In this document: positions 39,866 to 55,467 of the stretch, piece by piece | How positions within the stretch are numbered: position 1 is the first letter of the stretch | How the letters are laid out: each line of letters begins with the position of its first letter | Assembly (NCBI GenBank): GCA_965202805.1 | Contig: OZ241869.1 | Span: 2,528,001-2,592,000, forward strand | Direction of reading: 5' to 3' | DNA from: Longimicrobiales bacterium | GTDB lineage: Bacteria; Gemmatimonadota; Gemmatimonadetes; Longimicrobiales; Gaopeijiaceae | DNA: 64,000 bases | Notes under the pieces: model-generated | What the model was told of the DNA's origin: nothing | The model's input: only the letters and a program-made list of their open reading frames with translations | Database searches by the model: none | Position numbers and translations under genes: made by a program

Positions 39866-40585
39866 ATGGAGGGCACTCCCTTGGCCGCACTCAACAACCT
39901 TTATGTTGCGCTCCTGCAGATCCCCGGGATGGAAGCTCCGGATCAGACACTCGGCGAGCAAATGGGATTCATCTGGGATCAGACGGGCTTCATGCGCTAT
40001 CCGCTGGCCGCCTGCATCGTCGTCGGCATCATCGTCATCATCTGGAAGTTCTTCGACCTGATGGCCAAGAGCGGCCGCACCAAGAAGATCCTCTCCGAGG
40101 TCGACGCTCTGCTCGCCGACGCCCAGCTGCAGGAGGCGATCGAGGTCACCCGCGAGTCCAACTCGCCCGCCGCGAACATCCTGTACGCCGGCCTCGAGCG
40201 GCACGAGGAAGGCACCGACCGGGTCATGAAGGCCATCGAGAACCAGGGGCTCATCGAGCTGAGCCGTCTGGAGCGCGGCCTGGTGGTCCTGGCGACCCTC
40301 ACCAACATTGCCCCGCTCCTCGGCTTCCTGGGCACGGTGATCGGGATGATCATCGCGTTCCAGTCCATCGAGCTGGCCGGTGAGGTCGAGGCGACGCTGG
40401 TGGCGGGCGGCATCAAGGTGGCGCTCCTTACGACCGCGGCCGGCCTCACGATCGCGATCCCCGTGAGCATCGCCCACAACTTCTTCGTCTCGCGCATCGA
40501 CTCGCTCGTCATCGACATGGAGGAGTCGGCCCAGAAGATGATCGACGCGCTCCACGCGATGGAGACCGGGAGGGCGTCCATATAG
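39866..40585 (+). CDS. exbB: MotA/TolQ/ExbB proton-channel protein
   Basis: LERGLVVLATLTNIAPLLGFLGTVIGMI, VAGGIKVALLTTAAGL.IAIP..IAHN. Confidence 0.88.
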   Translation: MEGTPLAALNNLYVALLQIPGMEAPDQTLGEQMGFIWDQTGFMRYPLAACIVVGIIVIIWKFFDLMAKSGRTKKILSEVDALLADAQLQEAIEVTRESNSPAANILYAGLERHEEGTDRVMKAIENQGLIELSRLERGLVVLATLTNIAPLLGFLGTVIGMIIAFQSIELAGEVEATLVAGGIKVALLTTAAGLTIAIPVSIAHNFFVSRIDSLVIDMEESAQKMIDALHAMETGRASI

Positions 40586-47322: not shown

Positions 47323-50300
47323 CTAGTGGAAGAACCGCCCTCTGCCCACGAACGCACCCCGTGAAGTTGCTCCCTGCGTTCCGGCCAGGCCGTCCAGCCA
47401 GTCGTTGAGGGAATCGATGCGGTCGGCAATCACATGGATCACGCCCTGCTCCTTCTCCAGCCGGCCGCGGCAGACCATGAGCCGCGCGGTGAGCAGGGCG
47501 CGGCGGCAACGTTCCTGGACCGAGGGAAACACCACCAGGTTGGCGGTTCCGGTCTCGTCCTCCAGGGTCACGAACACGATCCTGCCCGCCGTGCCCGGCC
47601 GCTGGCGGCACAGCACGATGCCGGCGACGGTGACGCGCGCACCGGCGGGGGCTTCCTCCAGGTGGCTGGCCGGGCGCACGCCCCGGTCGGCCAGCCGCTC
47701 CCTCAGCAGGGCGGCGGGGTGCTGTTTGAGGGACAGCCCGGTGGTGCGGTAGTCAGCCACCACCTGCTCGCCGGCGGAAAGGGCAGGCAGAGCCGGTTCC
47801 GGGCGGGGCGGTTCCGCCTCGCCGGGCGGATCGAAGAGAGGCAGCGGTTCCACCTGGTCCAGGGAGCTGATCGCCCAGGTGGCCTGGCGGCGGTCCAGCC
47901 CGGTGGAGGTGAAGGCGTCCGCCCTGGCCAGGCGCATCAGGACGGCCGGACTGGTCCCTGCCCGACGCTGCAGGTCGGCCGGGGAGCGATACCCTTCCTC
48001 CCGGGCCGTAACGATGCGGGTGGCGTCCTCTTCCCTCAGACCGCGGACCTGACGCAATCCCAGCCGCAGCGCCATGCGCGGTGGCGGGCACGCCGGTTCC
48101 AGGGTGCAGTCCCACTCCGAGTGGTTGACATCCACCGGGCGCACCTCCACCCCGTGCCTGCGCGCATCGCCCACGATCTGGGCGGGCGCGTAGAAGCCCA
48201 TGGGCTGGCTGTTCAGGAGGGCGCAGGCGAAGACCTCCGGGTAGTGGTGCTTCAGCCACGAGGAGATGTAGACCAGGAGCGCGAAACTGGCCGCGTGGCT
48301 CTCCGGAAAACCGTAGTCGCCGAACCCCTCGATCTGCTTGAAGCAGCGCTCGGCGAACTCCGGCTCGTACCCTTTCCCCACCATCCCATCCACGAACTTG
48401 TCGCGGAAGCGGTGGATGGTGCCGTAGTTGCGGAAGCTGGCCATGGCCCGGCGCAGCCGGTCCGCCTCGGCCGGGCTGAAGCCGGCTCCGACGATGGCGA
48501 TCTTCATCGCCTGTTCCTGGAAGAGGGGCACGCCCAGCGTCTTCCCCAGCACCTCGCGCAGATCTTCCGAAGGGTATTGCACCGGCTCCACGCCCCTGCG
48601 CCGGCGCAGGTAGGGGTGGACCATGTCCCCCTGGATCGGTCCGGGCCGCACGATCGCCACCTCGATGACCAGGTCGTAGAAGGTGGCCGGCTTCAGCCGC
48701 GGGAGCATCGCCATCTGCGCCCGGCTCTCGATCTGGAACACGCCGATCGTGTCCGCCCGCTGGATCATCCGATAGACCCCCGGATCCTCAGCGGGCACGT
48801 CCCCCAGAGTGTGGCGGACGCCGTAGTGTGCTTCCAGCAGCTCGAAGGAGCGCCGGATGCAGGAGAGCATGCCGAGCCCCAGCACATCCACCTTGACGAG
48901 CCCCAGCGCCTCGAGATCATCCTTGTTCCACTCGATCACCGTGCGGTCCTCCATGGCGGCGTTCTCGATGGGAACGATCTCGCACAGCGGCCCGCGGGAG
49001 ATGACGAAGCCGCCCGTGTGCTGGGACAGATGGCGGGGAAAGCCCTGGAGTTCGCGGGCCAGCTCCAGGGTCAGGCGCAGGCGCCGGTCCTTCGGGTCGA
49101 ACCCTTCCTCACGGGCGCGCTCCCCGTCCACCGGCTTCGACCAGACCGAAGCCATGGAGAGCAGCCGGTCGACCGTGTCCTTGCTCAGCCCCATGGCCCT
49201 GCCGGTGTCGCGCAGGGCACTGCGGACGCGATAGGTCACCACCGTTGCGGCCAGCCCGGCCCGCTCGCGGCCGTACTTGCGGTAGATGTACTGGATGACC
49301 TCCTCGCGGCGCTCGTGCTCGAAATCCACGTCGATGTCGGGCACTTCGTTTCGCTGGGCGGAAATGAAGCGCTCGAACAGCAGGTCGATGCGGTCCGGAT
49401 CGACCGAGGTGATCTCCAGGCAGTAGCACACCGCCGAGTTGGCGGCCGAGCCGCGTCCCTGGCACAGGATGCCCATGCCGCGGGCGGTCCGGACGATGTC
49501 GGCCACGGTAAGGAAATAAGGGGCGTATTCCAGTTCGCCGATGAGCGTCAGCTCGTGTTCGAGCGTCGCCCGCACTCCGGAGGGGATGCCCTCGGGATAG
49601 CGCCGGGCCGCGCCCTCCCAGGTCAGGGCCTCGAGCTCCTGCTGGGGCGTGCGGCCTTCGCCGACCCCCTCTCCGGGATATTCGTAGCGCAGTTCTCCGA
49701 GGGAGAAGCGGCAGCGCTCGGCGATCTCCACTGCATTGGCCAGGGCACGGGGATGATCGCGGAAGAGGGCGGCCATCTTCAGGGGGGATTTGAGATGGCG
49801 TTCCGCGTTGGCCGCGAGGCGCCAGCCGGCGGTGTCGATGGTGCAGCGCTCGCGGATGCAGGTGAGCAGGTCGTGGAGCCGACGCCGCTCCGGGATGTGC
49901 TGGTGCACGTCGCCGGTCGCGACCAGGGGCACGCGCTCCGCTTCCGAGAGGGAGGCGAGGTCCGCCAGGCGGAGGGCGTCGTTGCCCCGGTGGAGGCAGG
50001 TGGCGGCCATGAAGAGAGGTGCGTCCAGCCGCGCCCGGTACCACGCCAGCCGTTCGGCGAAAACGGGACCGGGCACCTCCGGCGGCAGGGCGATGAAGAC
50101 CTGCTCTCCAGCCGCCTCCACGACGTCCCCGCGGTGGAGCCGACACTCTCCCTTGGGAGCGCGCCTGCGTCCCCGGGTGATGAGGCGGGCCAGGCGGCCG
50201 TAGCCCTTCCTGGAGACGGGCAGGCAGAGCAGGGACGGCCCGTCCTCGAGGTCGAGGCGGGCGCCGGCGATGAAGCGGAGCGCGGTCTCGCGGGCGGCGT

Positions 50301-50529
50301 GGTGGGCGCGCACGACCCCCGCCAGGGTGTTGCGGTCGGTGAGAGCCAGGGCGCGGTAGCCCAGGGCATGCGCCCGCTCCACCAGTTCCTCGGGCCGGGA
50401 GGCACCGCGCAGGAACGAGAAGTTGCTGGTGACCTGGAGTTCCGCGTAGCCGCCCGTCCAGGCCGACGAACCTCCATCCGTGCGGCCGCCGGGGAGGAGC
50501 GCCGCGGGGTCGCGCCCGACCGCGCTCAC
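47323..50529 (-). CDS. dnaE2: Error-prone DNA polymerase III alpha (ImuC)
   Basis: YAELQVTSNFSFLRGAS, GRGSAANSAVCY, PDIDVDFEHERREEV, YGFPESHAASFA, LLNSQPMGFY. Confidence 0.95.
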   Translation of the reverse strand: MSAVGRDPAALLPGGRTDGGSSAWTGGYAELQVTSNFSFLRGASRPEELVERAHALGYRALALTDRNTLAGVVRAHHAARETALRFIAGARLDLEDGPSLLCLPVSRKGYGRLARLITRGRRRAPKGECRLHRGDVVEAAGEQVFIALPPEVPGPVFAERLAWYRARLDAPLFMAATCLHRGNDALRLADLASLSEAERVPLVATGDVHQHIPERRRLHDLLTCIRERCTIDTAGWRLAANAERHLKSPLKMAALFRDHPRALANAVEIAERCRFSLGELRYEYPGEGVGEGRTPQQELEALTWEGAARRYPEGIPSGVRATLEHELTLIGELEYAPYFLTVADIVRTARGMGILCQGRGSAANSAVCYCLEITSVDPDRIDLLFERFISAQRNEVPDIDVDFEHERREEVIQYIYRKYGRERAGLAATVVTYRVRSALRDTGRAMGLSKDTVDRLLSMASVWSKPVDGERAREEGFDPKDRRLRLTLELARELQGFPRHLSQHTGGFVISRGPLCEIVPIENAAMEDRTVIEWNKDDLEALGLVKVDVLGLGMLSCIRRSFELLEAHYGVRHTLGDVPAEDPGVYRMIQRADTIGVFQIESRAQMAMLPRLKPATFYDLVIEVAIVRPGPIQGDMVHPYLRRRRGVEPVQYPSEDLREVLGKTLGVPLFQEQAMKIAIVGAGFSPAEADRLRRAMASFRNYGTIHRFRDKFVDGMVGKGYEPEFAERCFKQIEGFGDYGFPESHAASFALLVYISSWLKHHYPEVFACALLNSQPMGFYAPAQIVGDARRHGVEVRPVDVNHSEWDCTLEPACPPPRMALRLGLRQVRGLREEDATRIVTAREEGYRSPADLQRRAGTSPAVLMRLARADAFTSTGLDRRQATWAISSLDQVEPLPLFDPPGEAEPPRPEPALPALSAGEQVVADYRTTGLSLKQHPAALLRERLADRGVRPASHLEEAPAGARVTVAGIVLCRQRPGTAGRIVFVTLEDETGTANLVVFPSVQERCRRALLTARLMVCRGRLEKEQGVIHVIADRIDSLNDWLDGLAGTQGATSRGAFVGRGRFFH

Positions 50530-52121
50530 GCGAAGAACCCGTGCAGGAACCAGCGCGGCGGGGCGGCGGGGTCGCGGGGTCGCTCGCAGAAGAGCCAGTA
50601 GCGCCGCCCCTCCTCGTCTTCAATCAGGTAGTAGTCGCGGGACGGGGCGTCCTCCAGCCACCATTCGCACTCCAGCCGCTCGGGACCTTCGGCCGCGCGC
50701 ACCCGGTGCCTCCGTCCACGCCAGCGAAAGAACGCCGGCGCGCCCGCAGGCTCCATCCCGCCGGGCTCGCGGGCGACGGCCTCCACCCGCTCCGGGGGAG
50801 ACAGCAGGCGGAGCGGCCGGCGGCGTCCCTCCGGCCAGCCCGGGCCGTGCCTCCGGTGTGCGGCCAGGGGCTCGCGGAGCTCGACCGCGCGCTCGGGCAG
50901 CCAGCTCTGGCGCGGGACCGGGCAGGCGATGTTTCCGAAACCGAAGCGGTTCCCCAGCCGGTCGACGAGGGCGGCCAGTTCTTCGCGGCCCGTCCCACCC
51001 TCTCCTCCGATCCATCCGCCGCTGCCCGCCGCTGCCGTTCCGGCCCGCGCGAACCAGTCCTCCTGCTCCTCTTCGACGACCTCGACCACCTCGGCGGACA
51101 ACACCATCTCCTCGATGCCGAAACCCGGGTCGATCCGCTCCAGCTTCCCCGCGAACAGGTTCATGAGGAGCCTTGCGCGGCGCAGAGGCCGGCTGGTGCC
51201 TGCCACCAGAACGGAACGCGCTCCATCCCCCCGGTGGCAGACGAGCCGCATGCGCCGCACGCCCTCGCCTGCCCGGCTCAGGATCCGGCACAGATCCCCC
51301 AGCAGGGCTTCCACCGCCGCGTGGATGGCGTCCACTGTCGAGACCGGCTCGGCAAAGGCACGGCGGGCCTCGCGCGGAAGCGGAGGCGGAAGAGAGATGA
51401 CCGGCTCCTGAGCGAAGCCGAGGGCCTGCTCCAGGCGGCGGCGCGGGGCGGGGCCGAACCTCTTCGCCAGCGCTCCGGGGTCGAAGGGGTAGAGCGTTCC
51501 GATCCTGTCCAGGCCGAAGGAGACCAGGGCCTCCACGACATCGGCATCGAGCCTGAGGGCGGCGACGGGGAGCCCGGCCAGCACCTCCTTCATCCTGGCC
51601 GGACCCGCAGACGGGGGCACGATGGCCGGAGACCTCTCCCCGTGGCGGGCCAGCGCCCAGGCCGCCCCGGGCGTACCGGCCAGAGCCAGTCGAGAGGTGA
51701 GCCCAAGCCCCCCCAACCCCGCCCCCAGCGCCGCCAGCAGCGCCTCCTCGCCGCCATGGAGATGCGTGCACCCCCCGACATCGAGGAAGAGCCCGTCCGC
51801 GCCGGCCGGCATGACCCGGGGGGTGAAGCCGTCCGCCCACCGGGCCAGCCGCTTCAGCGCATGGGCGTCGGCGGCGGGATCGGCGGGGTGGGCGATCACG
51901 TCGGGCACGATGGCCCGTCCGTCGGCCAGGGGCATGCCCGGCGCCAGCCCAGCCCCCGCCGCGCGCGGGTTGACCGCCTCGATCACCAGCCGCCCCCGCT
52001 GCTCGCCGATGGTCACGAAGGGCCGGGTGCGCGCCTCGGGACAGCGCCAGACCAGCCTCTCCACCGGCCACCAGGGGAACCAGGCGGCAAGGATGCGACG
52101 GGGGGTGGAAAAGACGCCCAT
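50526..52121 (-). CDS. imuB: Inactive Y-family polymerase ImuB
   Basis: GLAPGMPLADG, DGLFLDVGGC.HL.GGE, LVDRLGNRFG, RPLRLL.PPE, GPERLECEWW..RDYY, WFLHGFFA. Confidence 0.92.
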   Translation of the reverse strand: MGVFSTPRRILAAWFPWWPVERLVWRCPEARTRPFVTIGEQRGRLVIEAVNPRAAGAGLAPGMPLADGRAIVPDVIAHPADPAADAHALKRLARWADGFTPRVMPAGADGLFLDVGGCTHLHGGEEALLAALGAGLGGLGLTSRLALAGTPGAAWALARHGERSPAIVPPSAGPARMKEVLAGLPVAALRLDADVVEALVSFGLDRIGTLYPFDPGALAKRFGPAPRRRLEQALGFAQEPVISLPPPLPREARRAFAEPVSTVDAIHAAVEALLGDLCRILSRAGEGVRRMRLVCHRGDGARSVLVAGTSRPLRRARLLMNLFAGKLERIDPGFGIEEMVLSAEVVEVVEEEQEDWFARAGTAAAGSGGWIGGEGGTGREELAALVDRLGNRFGFGNIACPVPRQSWLPERAVELREPLAAHRRHGPGWPEGRRRPLRLLSPPERVEAVAREPGGMEPAGAPAFFRWRGRRHRVRAAEGPERLECEWWLEDAPSRDYYLIEDEEGRRYWLFCERPRDPAAPPRWFLHGFFA

Positions 52122-52135
52122 GGTTCCGGATCGGG

Positions 52136-52813
52136 TCAGCCGGCGCGGCGCGAAAGGTCACGGGCAGCCATCCCCACCACCCAATACCCCGGTCTCCCCC
52201 CGCGGCAGTGCACCACCTCCACGCGCCACCGGGTCATCCCGGTCCCCGGAACGGCGGTGACCCGCCACCGGCTGTCGGCCGTGGGTACCCTGACCCGCCC
52301 CGCCCCTCCTGTCCCGGCCTCAGGCCACAGTACCAGCCCGGGTACGCCCGAGCCTTCGGCGGCGAGCATCAGGCGCCGGGAGGCCGCCCGGTCAAGGGTG
52401 TCCACCTCCGCCACGACTCCTCTCAGGGCCCGGCAGCGCAGCGCCTCCTCCATGGCCCACAGCATGTCGGCCCGCCGCCGCAGCCCCGAAGCAACCAGCA
52501 GCCGCCCCGGTTCGATCCCGTACCGGACCAGTCCCGGCAGATAGAGGTCATCCCCGCGCGCCAGCCACAGGAGCGGCCCCGGGGCCCTGCCGGCACGCGC
52601 CAGAAGGACGGCGCAGAAACCGGTCGCGGCCTCGTCCCCGGCAATCTCATGGACGCACCCCGCACGCAGCCCGCCTCCGGGCAGGGCGCCATCGATTTCC
52701 GGGATGCCCAGCGACAGGCACGCCGCCCCGGCTTCGCCCGGAACCTCGATCCGGCGGATCTCTTCGCGCAGCGCCTCCAGCGCTCGCCGCTTCGTCTTCG
52801 GCACGTGAGACAT
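52136..52813 (-). CDS. imuA: RecA/SulA-like accessory protein ImuA
   Basis: IDGALPGGGL..G.VHEI, LWAMEEALRC, SRRLMLAAE, SRWRV; first gene of the imuABC cassette. Confidence 0.88.
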   Translation of the reverse strand: MSHVPKTKRRALEALREEIRRIEVPGEAGAACLSLGIPEIDGALPGGGLRAGCVHEIAGDEAATGFCAVLLARAGRAPGPLLWLARGDDLYLPGLVRYGIEPGRLLVASGLRRRADMLWAMEEALRCRALRGVVAEVDTLDRAASRRLMLAAEGSGVPGLVLWPEAGTGGAGRVRVPTADSRWRVTAVPGTGMTRWRVEVVHCRGGRPGYWVVGMAARDLSRRAG

Positions 52814-53021: not shown

Positions 53022-53699
53022 ATGTTTTCAAAGACGAATCGTCAGCCGATATCCTTCAGACTCCTCCTCGTCCTGCTGCTCGTCCCGACCGCCTTCGCGC
53101 TGACAGCCTGCGAAAGCTCTACGGAGCCGGAAGGGGACCGGATGACCCAGAACGAAGCCAACGCCCTCGTGCAGGGGCTGTACGGTGGAAGCCTTCTGGC
53201 GTATGGGGGATTACTTCTCCAGGCGGATCCGGCAATGCTCACAGCCGTTCCGCCTGGAGCGCCTCTTCCCCTGGACGCCGCCACTCCCTGCGCCGAAGGC
53301 GGCGAAGCCGGGTTCTCGGGAAGTGCGATGATCTCCATAGACGAGGCCCGGGGTTCCCTGGAGGTGGAGCTGTCTGGCACCCTGACCCCCAGCGGCTGCA
53401 CGTTCACCGGCGGCGGCGCCACTTTTGTCCTGGACAGCGATCCGGGTCTGGCTCAGACGGGCTCGGTCATCCTTGTACTGGAAGACTTCAGCTTTTCCAT
53501 CAACATCACGTCTTCCGGCTCGTTCAGCTGGACGAGCGGGACCAGATCGGGCAGCTGCGATCTCGACAACACCATCACCTCCGAGATCTCGATGGTCGAT
53601 ACCGCACTCAGCGGCGCCATCCCGACGGCGACCGTGTCGGGCTCCGTATGCGGCCTCAGCGTCAACCGTGACATCGAACTGACCGCCACGACCTCCTGA
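53022..53699 (+). CDS. Hypothetical lipoprotein (Ser/Thr/Gly-rich, beta-rich, 4 extra Cys)
   Basis: AGGAG RBS, signal peptide with lipobox ALTAC. Confidence 0.7.
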   Translation: MFSKTNRQPISFRLLLVLLLVPTAFALTACESSTEPEGDRMTQNEANALVQGLYGGSLLAYGGLLLQADPAMLTAVPPGAPLPLDAATPCAEGGEAGFSGSAMISIDEARGSLEVELSGTLTPSGCTFTGGGATFVLDSDPGLAQTGSVILVLEDFSFSINITSSGSFSWTSGTRSGSCDLDNTITSEISMVDTALSGAIPTATVSGSVCGLSVNRDIELTATTS

Positions 53700-53774
53700 C
53701 GCGGACAAACCCGCCGGGCACATCCCGACTGCGGGTGGTCCCGGTGCCCTCGACCTGCCCGGTCTTGCATGATG

Positions 53775-53839
53775 TATCGAACTTCGATATGTTGAGCACG
53801 TGATATATTGCTTGCCGATACATCGGAACACGACATAAT
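53775..53839 (+). promoter_or_regulatory. Four tandem TATCG-N5-CGATA-like palindromes overlapping a putative promoter
   Basis: TATCGaacttCGATA, TGTTGagcacgTGATA, TATTGcttgcCGATA, CATCGgaacaCGACA lie end to end; TTGCCG-16 nt-CATAAT overlaps units 3-4. Confidence 0.65.
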
Positions 53840-53873
53840 GCTCAGGGCGGGCATCTTCCTCAGGGATATCCAC

Positions 53874-54227
53874 ATGACGGACCAGGAATTCGACGCGCAG
53901 GGCTTCGCCCGGGGAATCCACGAACTGCTGGTCCTCGCTGCCCTGCGAGAGAGCCCCAGGCACGGCTACCAGATCGCCCTGGACGTGGAGGCGCACAGCA
54001 ACGGGGTCTTTCGTTTCCGGCACGGCACCCTGTACCCGATCCTGCACCGGATGGAGGGGAACGGGCTCATCCAGGGCCGCTGGTCGAGCGGGGGCGGGCG
54101 GAGAAGGAAGGTGTATTCGCTCACCGACATCGGCCGCAGGCACCTCAGCGGAGAAACGGACCGGGTTCAGGAGATCCTGTCCGGGCTCATGCGCATGCTT
54201 CGCCGTGCGCGGGAGCTCCCGGCGTGA
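53874..54227 (+). CDS. PadR-family transcriptional regulator (short subfamily)
   Basis: ELLVLAAL...PRHGYQI, GTLYPILHRME..GLI, RRRKVYSLTD.G. Confidence 0.92.
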   Translation: MTDQEFDAQGFARGIHELLVLAALRESPRHGYQIALDVEAHSNGVFRFRHGTLYPILHRMEGNGLIQGRWSSGGGRRRKVYSLTDIGRRHLSGETDRVQEILSGLMRMLRRARELPA

Positions 54228-55039
54228 GCGCGTTCCAGCCGGCGCTGCGCAGGCTCGACCGGGACTTGACGGTCCCCATTCCGGACCGCCTCAGGATCCT
54301 GCGCGAACTCGAATTCGACCTCGAGGCGCTCTCCGGCGAACTCGAAGCCCGGGGTACGCCCCCGGACGAGGCCCGCGCCCGCGCGCTGGACGCCCTCGTG
54401 CCCGACGGGGCGACGCTCCGCGAACTCGACCGCCTCCACGCCTCCCACTACCGCCGGCTCACCCGCCACTTCAGTCCCGGCCGCCTGCGCACCCTCGAGC
54501 GCTCGGCGCTCGCCCTGACCACCGCAGTCGTGCTTTTCGCGGAGACCTTCCTGCTTCTGCGGGCCGACTGGCTCCGTCATGCGTCGCCCTTCCTGTGGCC
54601 GGTTCTCGGGCTGGGTACACTCCTTTTCGCAGCCATCGCCACGCTCTCGTTCAGGCTGTGGGTCAAGCGCGACCACCGGGATCCGGCAGCGAACCTCCGC
54701 GTCATCCTGTTCCTGTCCGGCCTGACGCTCGCCACCGGCATCTTCGGCGCCCTTGCCGACCTCTTACGGCTCGCCGGGGCTCTGGAGGCCGAGCCCGGAC
54801 TGGCCGGATCGCTCCTGCTCGAGTGGTTGGCCGGAACCTGCGTCCTGCTCTCGTTCTCACTGTTGCTGGCCCTCACCGGAGGGCTGGCCTGGTTCATTCC
54901 CGCACACTGGCTCGCGCTCGTCTCCGGTGCGCACGCCGAGCTGCTGGGCAACCCCCTGCCGGACACCCGCCCCGGCGCGCCGCGGATGCCCGATCCCGCG
55001 CCCACACACCAACCCGCATCCCTGGGAGAATCATCATGA
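54224..55039 (+). CDS. Membrane protein with an N-terminal HAAS/permease-prefix-like helical domain and about 4 TM helices
   Basis: LRRLDRDL...RILRELEFDLEALSGELEARG.PPDEARARAL, then hydrophobic segments; GTGA overlap with padR. Confidence 0.7.
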   Translation: MSAFQPALRRLDRDLTVPIPDRLRILRELEFDLEALSGELEARGTPPDEARARALDALVPDGATLRELDRLHASHYRRLTRHFSPGRLRTLERSALALTTAVVLFAETFLLLRADWLRHASPFLWPVLGLGTLLFAAIATLSFRLWVKRDHRDPAANLRVILFLSGLTLATGIFGALADLLRLAGALEAEPGLAGSLLLEWLAGTCVLLSFSLLLALTGGLAWFIPAHWLALVSGAHAELLGNPLPDTRPGAPRMPDPAPTHQPASLGESS

Positions 55040-55467
55040 CCGCGATGGAAGCCTTCGAAGCCCTCGGCGTCATCCGCTGGCCGCTCACCTTCTCGCTGCT
55101 GGTGGTCGTCGCCCTGGCGCTGTGGTCGCTCGCGCTGGTGTGGCGCAGTGCCATGCCGGGCCGGCACGCCAAGGCCTGGATCGACGCCATCCTGTTCTGG
55201 GGAGGGTTCGCGGCCATCAGCGGCGTGCTGGGCACACTGGTCGGCATAATCATCACCTTCCAGTTCATCGAGTTGGCCGGCGAGGTCGTGGCGACGCTGG
55301 TGGCGGGCGGCATCAAGGTCGCGCTCCTCAGTTCGGCGCTCGGCACCCTGATCCTGGCCGTCGCTTCCCTGCTCTGGTTCGGACTCCAGCTACGCTGGCG
55401 GATCCTGGTGGCGCGGCACGCCGGAGAGACCGTGCAGGACCCCGGAAGCGGCGTATTACCAGTGTAA
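55036..55467 (+). CDS. Minimal MotA/TolQ/ExbB-family protein (3 TM, cytoplasmic domain missing)
   Basis: GVLGTLVGIIITFQFIELAGEVVATLVAGGIKVALLSSALG; ATGA overlap with the upstream gene. Confidence 0.8.
   Translation: MTAMEAFEALGVIRWPLTFSLLVVVALALWSLALVWRSAMPGRHAKAWIDAILFWGGFAAISGVLGTLVGIIITFQFIELAGEVVATLVAGGIKVALLSSALGTLILAVASLLWFGLQLRWRILVARHAGETVQDPGSGVLPV

Follow-up and report, generated by a model that had tools for sequence, protein, structure and literature searches.

How does a bacterium come to carry, directly behind a repressor gene, two proteins related to the ring subunits of ExbB/TolQ motors and no gene for an ExbD/TolR partner? The question is raised by a three-gene operon in a 64,000-nucleotide stretch (here called the window) of a Longimicrobiales genome (Gemmatimonadota; GenBank assembly GCA_965202805.1, contig OZ241869.1, positions 2,528,001 to 2,592,000, forward strand). 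All three genes lie on the plus strand: padR (53874..54227, ATG start, TGA stop) encodes a 117-residue short PadR-family winged-helix repressor, a gene that we call mid (54224..55039, GTG start) encodes a 271-residue membrane protein, and mini-ExbB, or mini (55036..55467, ATG start), encodes 143 residues (about 133 in close relatives). The open reading frames share their ends, with a GTGA overlap between padR and mid and an ATGA overlap between mid and mini, just as a first-pass annotation of this DNA had described three coupled genes; its locus start at 53775 falls inside an operator palindrome, the padR ATG being at 53874. The regulatory arm of the system (PadR, its operator, and an anti-repressor head on mid) is fairly well supported by sequence conservation and structure prediction. 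Our overall reading, that mini is a ring subunit made on induction to tune ExbB-type motors, is a proposal on which we are evenly divided.

The first-pass annotation had made its proposal depend on other genomes sharing the arrangement, and it is kept across several phyla. Scanning of species genomes turned up 51 loci, comprising 47 complete triads, 2 loci cut by contig ends, and 2 broken ones, with the labels Acidobacteriota, KSB1, Melioribacteraceae, Cytophagia, Neomarinimicrobiota, Planctomycetaceae, Cloacimonadota, Gemmatimonadota, and unclassified. A stand-alone padR adjoins mid in 49 of these loci, the exceptions being one contig-end cut and one broken locus. The triad was also present at all 17 loci with a full mid match in a 201-genome phylum sample and at 28 of the 30 top mini loci within the class, the other 2 being cut by contig ends; these sets partly overlap, and the kin within them are not independent. 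No neighbor other than the triad is conserved, and most loci hold three genes only. Named homologs carry Longimicrobiales or Gemmatimonadota labels. Searches found no mini relative on viral contigs and no mid on plasmids. Contigs of relatives were found in a sponge metatranscriptome (word share, 0.07), including one of 943 bases that runs from the end of padR through mid to the start of mini and is about 91% alike; they are not used as support because contigs do not show transcription.

The PadR assignment is secure, with PF03551 matching at 90 bits against a cut-off of 27, as expected from the earlier description of a short PadR; the acidobacterial PadR model TIGR03433 gives 87.9 bits, under its cut-off of 101.8. 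A 21-bp palindrome with the consensus ATATAT[AC]GA-N3-TC[GT]ATATAT precedes padR with 3 or fewer mismatches in 41 of 46 upstream regions (shuffled regions: mean, 0.15; maximum, 1). The candidate operator O1 (53772..53792, plus strand) has 2 mismatches and is the second-best site in the 4.02-Mb genome for a matrix made only from other genomes, and its core, TATCG-N5-CGATA, occurs twice in the genome, once 5' of each of two copies of the operon. Two further candidate operators, O2 and O3 (53803-53823 and 53818-53838, plus strand; matrix scores, 10.9 and 9.9), overlap a match to a sigma-70-like promoter, TTGCCG-16-CATAAT (53812-53839, plus strand). Tandem sites are the rule at homologous loci, and seven of the top nine matrix sites in this genome precede the two operon copies. 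The best genome site (C1:2071818, before a DUF1572/DinB gene) was considered as a further member of the regulon and dropped, since none of 12 homologous loci elsewhere keeps it and the stretch around it (C1:2071780-2071870), which holds the near-perfect match, is AT rich. The nearest precedent is the LltR-Lmo0600-Lmo0601 operon of Listeria, in which, according to the accessible text of that study, LltR represses its own PadR-DUF1700 operon, with approximately 100- to 150-fold derepression in a repressor mutant (PMC6624303). That operon likewise combines a PadR, a membrane protein (DUF1700), and a third gene, but the membrane domain is DUF1700, the third gene is DUF4097, and neither ExbB likeness nor binding of a head to LltR is reported in that text (PMC6624303). 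Given the conserved operator and the LltR precedent, we infer that PadR likely represses its own operon, in line with the PadR control claimed in the first-pass annotation.

The second gene begins with a cytoplasmic, HAAS-like helical head (residues 1 to 92; 54224..54499, plus strand), the predicted anti-repressor. Homologs of mid were gathered by a profile search (542 clusters at 50% identity), and residue counts refer to an alignment of 76 rows. NF038403 (perm_prefix_1, a permease prefix) matches 69 of the 76 at an expect value (E) of 0.05 or less (best, 7e-8), which is in line with the HAAS-like N-terminal domain that had been claimed; the Pfam HAAS family PF22564 matches 2 of 76, with E of at least 0.021. 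In the model of mid the head forms helices at residues 5 to 14, 19 to 42, and 47 to 58. No part of mid is better conserved than the head, in which three residues are invariant or nearly so (E28 in 76/76, D32 in 75/76, and H72 in 75/76).

When two copies of PadR were modeled with two copies of mid residues 1 to 95, as the first-pass annotation had proposed doing, a complex was predicted with a score of 0.61, against 0.00 for the best of three controls; the score mark is one that 116 of 157 solved pairs and 2 of 215 mismatched pairs attain, counts that hold only roughly for this job. Contact agreement among the runs is at least 96%, and the partner predicted local distance difference test (pLDDT) value is at least 77. 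The modeled contacts join PadR residues 30 to 32, 47 to 55, and 76 to 79 to mid residues that include E28, D32, and H72, and on the PadR side H30-G31-Y32 and G51-P55 are invariant among 41 aligned operon PadRs. We take the PadR contact residues to be the DNA-binding helix and wing of the winged-helix fold. The mid head is thus predicted to dock on the DNA-binding face of PadR, and because the model places it there, mid is likely an anti-repressor. It is quite improbable that the PadR is an ordinary ligand sensor of the LmrR/LadR type set over two membrane effectors, with the mid head as a targeting or assembly module instead of a PadR binder: the predicted complex and its invariant residues speak against this, as do the conservation of the head relative to the rest of mid and the fact that a padR neighbor is missing in only 2 of 51 loci. 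Short PadRs are able to bind ligands directly, a point on the side of such a sensor. Another is that binding between HAAS and PadR has the standing of a proposal in the accessible parts of the paper on this pair (Ravi et al., mSystems 2024, PMC11237479).

That HAAS-PadR-like winged helix-turn-helix dyad is the closest relative in design, combining a stand-alone short PadR with a multipass protein that has an N-terminal helical head, and the proposal there is that it passes a signal from the membrane on to the repressor (PMC11237479). We found no HAAS-PadR binding data in the accessible parts of that paper, and the text and supplement, as far as they could be searched, do not mention ExbB, MotA, or TolQ (PMC11237479). 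Among 45 PadR relatives in the PDB, judged by molecule names only, none is named as a PadR-HAAS complex. The triad works like the HAAS-PadR dyad though its head lacks the GxP motif; it differs also in that the membrane body is ExbB/TolQ derived and a paralogous third gene follows. The acidobacterial PadR-ADOP permease pairs (TIGR03433, NF038403), which are weak matches of the mid profile (L017 to L019), have a related PadR and a related head but an FtsX/MacB-type permease body, and the window proteins fall under both cut-offs. A parallel for the predicted capture is CarS of Myxococcus, which, in the portion of the report consulted, uses an acidic surface to sequester the recognition helix of its winged-helix target repressor, in the way predicted for the mid head; CarS, however, has a soluble SH3-like fold, acts on the MerR-type CarA/CarH, and is unrelated in sequence and fold (PMC2926617). 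A literature search that did not extend to subscription papers found no published description of a PadR/mid/mini system.

The body of mid (residues 94 to 239; 54503..54940, plus strand) consists of one extra transmembrane (TM) helix and a degenerate three-helix ExbB/TolQ-like domain. The kinship is remote. In a Pfam scan of the window mid no family passed, PF01618 included, and PF01618 matches 1 of the 76 homologs, the chimera P0377 (E, 5e-4). Neither a pairwise BLAST of mid against mini (E, 0.072) nor hhalign with shallow alignments (4.7%) revealed homology. With deep alignments, hhalign matched mid residues 113 to 239 to the whole of mini at 98.9% (E, 1.5e-17; 126 columns; reversed control, 0.6%). 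The four best matches of the mid profile among PDB sequences are TolQ (E, 0.0017 to 0.0038; 92 ungapped columns), followed by ExbB. Structure comparison is less specific: 9 of the top 10 Foldseek rows for the mid model are ExbB/TolQ, but with E of at least 0.6, and in a wide structural search helical bundles lead and ExbB ranks 25th (Z, 8.3; root mean square deviation [rmsd], 3.5; 132 aligned). Since residues 113 to 239 align to all of mini, mid is, on this comparison, composed of a cytoplasmic head, an additional helix, and a degenerate mini domain oriented as in ExbB, with a topology deduced from hydropathy and charge. The first-pass annotation had noted a degenerate TM2-TM3 hairpin in mid; the likeness holds, and its extent was underestimated, as the whole three-helix domain is there. 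Several variants of mid were seen. P0377 is a mid/mini recombinant with the head and TM2 of mid and a mini-type TM3; at L124:1766-2112 a deletion fuses the start of mid to the end of mini; and at four loci (L089:6250-6654, L097:6265-6681, L104:6189-6602, and L106:4284-4742) a fourth gene encodes a three-helix protein that resembles mid without its head and has a longer loop containing two cysteines.

The third protein is more plainly an ExbB relative. PF01618 matches mini at 35.9 bits over residues 51 to 113 (cut-off, 22.9), and alignment to the host ExbBs matches TM1 as well as TM2-TM3, with approximately 80 residues of the cytoplasmic domain between TM1 and TM2 gone. An earlier view of mini as an ExbB TM2-TM3 hairpin without the cytoplasmic domain was therefore right on both counts and needs the correction that TM1 is kept too. 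The model of mini has a pLDDT of 85.8; its Foldseek leaders are ExbB, TolQ, and MotA (probability, 1.0; E, 0.018), and the wide structural search puts ExbB (6ye4) first (Z, 11.1; rmsd, 3.0; 143 aligned), with CorA tied at 10.9. Residue counts for mini refer to 126 distinct sequences. The helix-packing glycines G63, G70, and G103 are fixed in all 126. Prolines in TM2 and TM3 are important in ExbB and TolQ, and no mini of the 126 has a proline at the site of TolQ P138 or P187. The site of TolQ T145 is polar in 126/126 (T, 56; Q, 27; S, 26; H, 17), and that of T178 is S or T in 101/126; the accessible text of the structural work places T145 and T178 on the proton path of TolQ (PMC12965293). A FastTree analysis of minis, mid domains, and ExbBs set the three groups apart, and the direction of descent is not readable from it. 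The mini of the window extends 10 residues at its C terminus beyond its 133-residue relatives (55436-55467). Elsewhere mini is fused to a PF00144 serine hydrolase through a signal peptide-like fourth helix, at four loci plus one that is frameshifted (L094:5753-7618, L105:5781-7565, L114:5802-8033, L116:5774-7570, and L100:1428-3114), and at L178:1984-3300 a PF00144-type hydrolase is a separate gene after a mini linked to LytTR. A search for longer forms gave 5 proteins only, which is weak evidence on fusions.

Members of the MotA/TolQ/ExbB family are known as the rings of 5:2 ion motors in the consulted part of the same work (PMC12965293), and it could be asked whether mid and mini together make up a separate ion-conducting ring or motor, in which D179 of mid replaces the ExbD aspartate or ExbD is borrowed from elsewhere in the genome. 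Position 179 of mid, the TolQ G148 site one turn from T145, is D or E in 61/76, which favors this, as do the polar and hydroxyl residues that minis keep at the T145 and T178 sites on the TolQ proton path. Yet mid lacks both pore threonines, the T145 site is Q or H in 44/126 minis, and no gene for an energy-consuming partner is conserved. The specific idea that D179 serves as an ExbD aspartate within mid itself lost ground with the distant homologs, 12/76 having G for the acid. An ExbD profile, in which MotB-type partners were not included, had no match at 140 triad or mini loci (flanks of 1.5 to 5 kb, some places counted twice), whereas the same profile found 16 genes in 8/8 control loci. We therefore hold an independent motor to be improbable. 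The known ExbB-ExbD and TolQ-TolR motors (PF01618; 6tyi, 6ye4, 8odt, and 9kpz) share with mini the three-helix fold, the packing glycines, and a TM1 motif, and with many minis the two pore hydroxyl sites (PMC12965293, as far as its text was accessible); mini differs in having no cytoplasmic domain, no P138 or P187 equivalents, and no cognate exbD, tolR, or tonB, and in its regulatory gene context. Judged by gene content and key residues, the triad is not a member of the 5:2 motors.

The host has such motors elsewhere. Profile counts give five PF01618 and three PF02472 genes, the former distributed over an exbB-exbD-exbD-tonB-like operon, a tolQR-type operon, an orphan exbB, and two minis (gene names outside the two families were assigned by reading translations). 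All three exbD/tolR genes lie more than 1.2 Mb from the triad, so that the claim that exbD, tolR, and tonB are absent nearby stands. The full-length exbB within the window (39866..40585, plus strand; PF01618, 110 bits), which the first-pass annotation named for the modeling of mixed pentamers, is itself the orphan, and the complete operons are elsewhere. Orphan exbB loci from 17 genomes, about 2.8 kb each, showed no exbD-like match alongside. Related genomes keep the orphan besides a separate exbB-exbD-exbD-tonB-like operon, and it is a candidate for mixed ExbB pentamers and a candidate target of mini.

What mini does is best approached through loci where it stands without mid. Queried with mini, a 167-genome phylum yielded 26 loci, of which 17 were triads; at 5 the mini stood opposite a PF06580 kinase, 1 mini was alone, and the remaining 3 loci were cut or broken. 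In a sample of 301 genomes around a Melioribacteraceae genome, 12 mini loci turned up: 1 was a triad, 7 had the mini opposite a LytTR membrane protein, 3 had it opposite a PF06580 kinase, and 1 was a second copy near a sensor-linked one. Altogether, mini without mid stands opposite a LytTR or LytS-type sensor at 15 loci (10 in Bacteroidota and 5 in a second phylum), and an annotated Fulvitalea plasmid has the same mini/sensor layout. Five of the LytTR loci (L175 to L179) share a motif 98 to 141 bases 5' of mini, between sensor and mini, which reads TCGAyGAA with a CTACmTTG-like word some 22 bases farther along and is likely a LytTR site. As mini is also found without mid opposite LytTR and LytS sensors, two unrelated membrane-sensing circuits seem to have it as their output, and mid, unlike mini, looks like a sensor and anti-repressor; mini could also be a feedback partner of each sensor. 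The first-pass annotation had spoken of a pair of ExbB-like subunits, and their ExbB derivation stands, while equal roles do not fit a mini that also occurs under LytTR/LytS control without mid.

These 15 loci also bear on a rather unlikely alternative in which mid and mini form a hetero-oligomeric sensor of their own, mini being an obligatory partner or feedback inhibitor that never touches the host motor and the output being variable cargo, namely, serine hydrolases and FGE (formylglycine-generating enzyme)-sulfatase-like and propeller lipoproteins. Minis opposite unrelated sensors and without mid are hard to reconcile with it, as are the lack of any conserved cargo at loci most of which have three genes only and the replacement of the mini loop by host exbB sequence. 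It draws on the position of mini after mid, translationally coupled, in 47/51 loci, on the PF00144 hydrolase fusions (four loci plus one frameshifted), on the mid/mini chimera P0377, and on a second operon copy in which cargo genes stand between operator and padR. That copy is a second triad in the same 4.02-Mb single-contig genome (C1:390697-389044); three cargo genes and a padR remnant sit between its operators and padR (C1:395256-390694, L021), the cargo being FGE-sulfatase-like lipoproteins, one with a propeller, and several relatives have comparable inserts 5' of padR.

Returning to mini as a subunit that acts on host motors, a hint of a link to the host ExbB lies in its periplasmic TM2-TM3 loop. 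Codons 75 to 97 of mini (55258..55326, plus strand) form a patch copied from the orphan exbB (~40358-40426), its likely donor. The patch DNA (compared over codons 74 to 96) is 90% identical to the orphan exbB of the same genome and 62% identical to the paralogous mini, and its flanks are 87% and 94% identical to that paralog. A cluster of informative sites spans codons 75 to 90-97 (P = 2e-4; 30/30 comparisons), with segments of 14 to 24 against a largest segment of 4 in controls, of which 4/15 gave P < 0.05. We take exbB as the donor because the exbB loop does not vary within the genus, no matter which loop mini carries. In a quick tree made without the loop (116 of 120 proteins, four left out for length), minis with the ExbB-type loop fall in five places, of which two are well-supported clades (Shimodaira-Hasegawa support, 97 and 100) among W-type minis. 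The patch shows that the loops of mini and ExbB are exchangeable, as far as their sequences go, and the uptake of sequence from the exbB at 39866 is an independent hint of a link to the host ExbB. The idea of gene conversion in each lineage from the exbB of the same genome was set aside: the best-matching exbB is often that of another species (0.93, against 0.90 for ours), so the transfer either predates the species or came by exchange.

We propose the following scheme. PadR would bind O1 to O3 and repress its own promoter; two mid heads would cover the HGY motif, the recognition helix, and the wing of a PadR dimer, block DNA binding, and thereby turn the operon on. Operator binding and head capture, taken together, we regard as probable. 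The ExbB-like body of mid would sit in a ring with mini or with the host ExbB, and the head would become exposed when the ring is disturbed. In the weakest step, extra mini may enter host ExbB pentamers and lower Ton-type motor activity under envelope or energy stress, an effect that would be owed to the missing cytoplasmic domain and the absence of both kink prolines. Ring sensing by mid combined with throttling of host pentamers by mini is a tentative pairing, which we think somewhat less probable than its failure. We consider it unlikely that the whole is an inducible decoy for Ton/Tol motors, in which a stripped ExbB throttles host pentamers, its sister subunit reports ring status to a repressor through a membrane-tethered DNA-mimic head, repeated exbB gene conversion keeps the periplasmic tip of the decoy like that of its target, and LytTR systems of Bacteroidota have recruited the same decoy.

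A number of observations weigh against the scheme. The match of the window mid to NF038403 (residues 22 to 56, 17.5 bits) is under the cut-off of 30, and the GxP motif is missing from the head, residues 58 to 60 being L-V-P (P in 32/76; G uncommon at 58). The TM3 glycines are missing from mid, with W at the G170 site in 45/76, a change that speaks against ExbB-like packing in that helix. In this genome, none of the 25 best matrix sites lies before an exbB or tolQ gene. Loop matching is not required, since the ExbB-type loop is absent from most minis (of 118 classified, 66 are W-type and 52 A-type) and the divergence is greater still in distant minis, and the loop transfer may be neutral recombination between paralogs 15 kb apart.

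Directly 5' of the operators, positions 53022-53699 (plus strand) encode a 225-residue lipoprotein-like open reading frame that has no Pfam or NCBIfam match. Divergent from it, an imuA-like gene (named by reading its translation), imuB (PF00817), and dnaE2 form a mutagenesis cassette at 47323-52813 (minus strand).

The operon places two members of the MotA/TolQ/ExbB family, with no plug gene and no cytoplasmic domain, in regulatory circuits. If mini does enter host rings, TonB-type uptake would be regulated through the composition of the motor. The locus also offers an operator sequence and a residue-level model for the control of PadR by a HAAS-like head, in which the head would block the DNA-binding face of PadR, and this makes the proposed HAAS-PadR idea directly testable.

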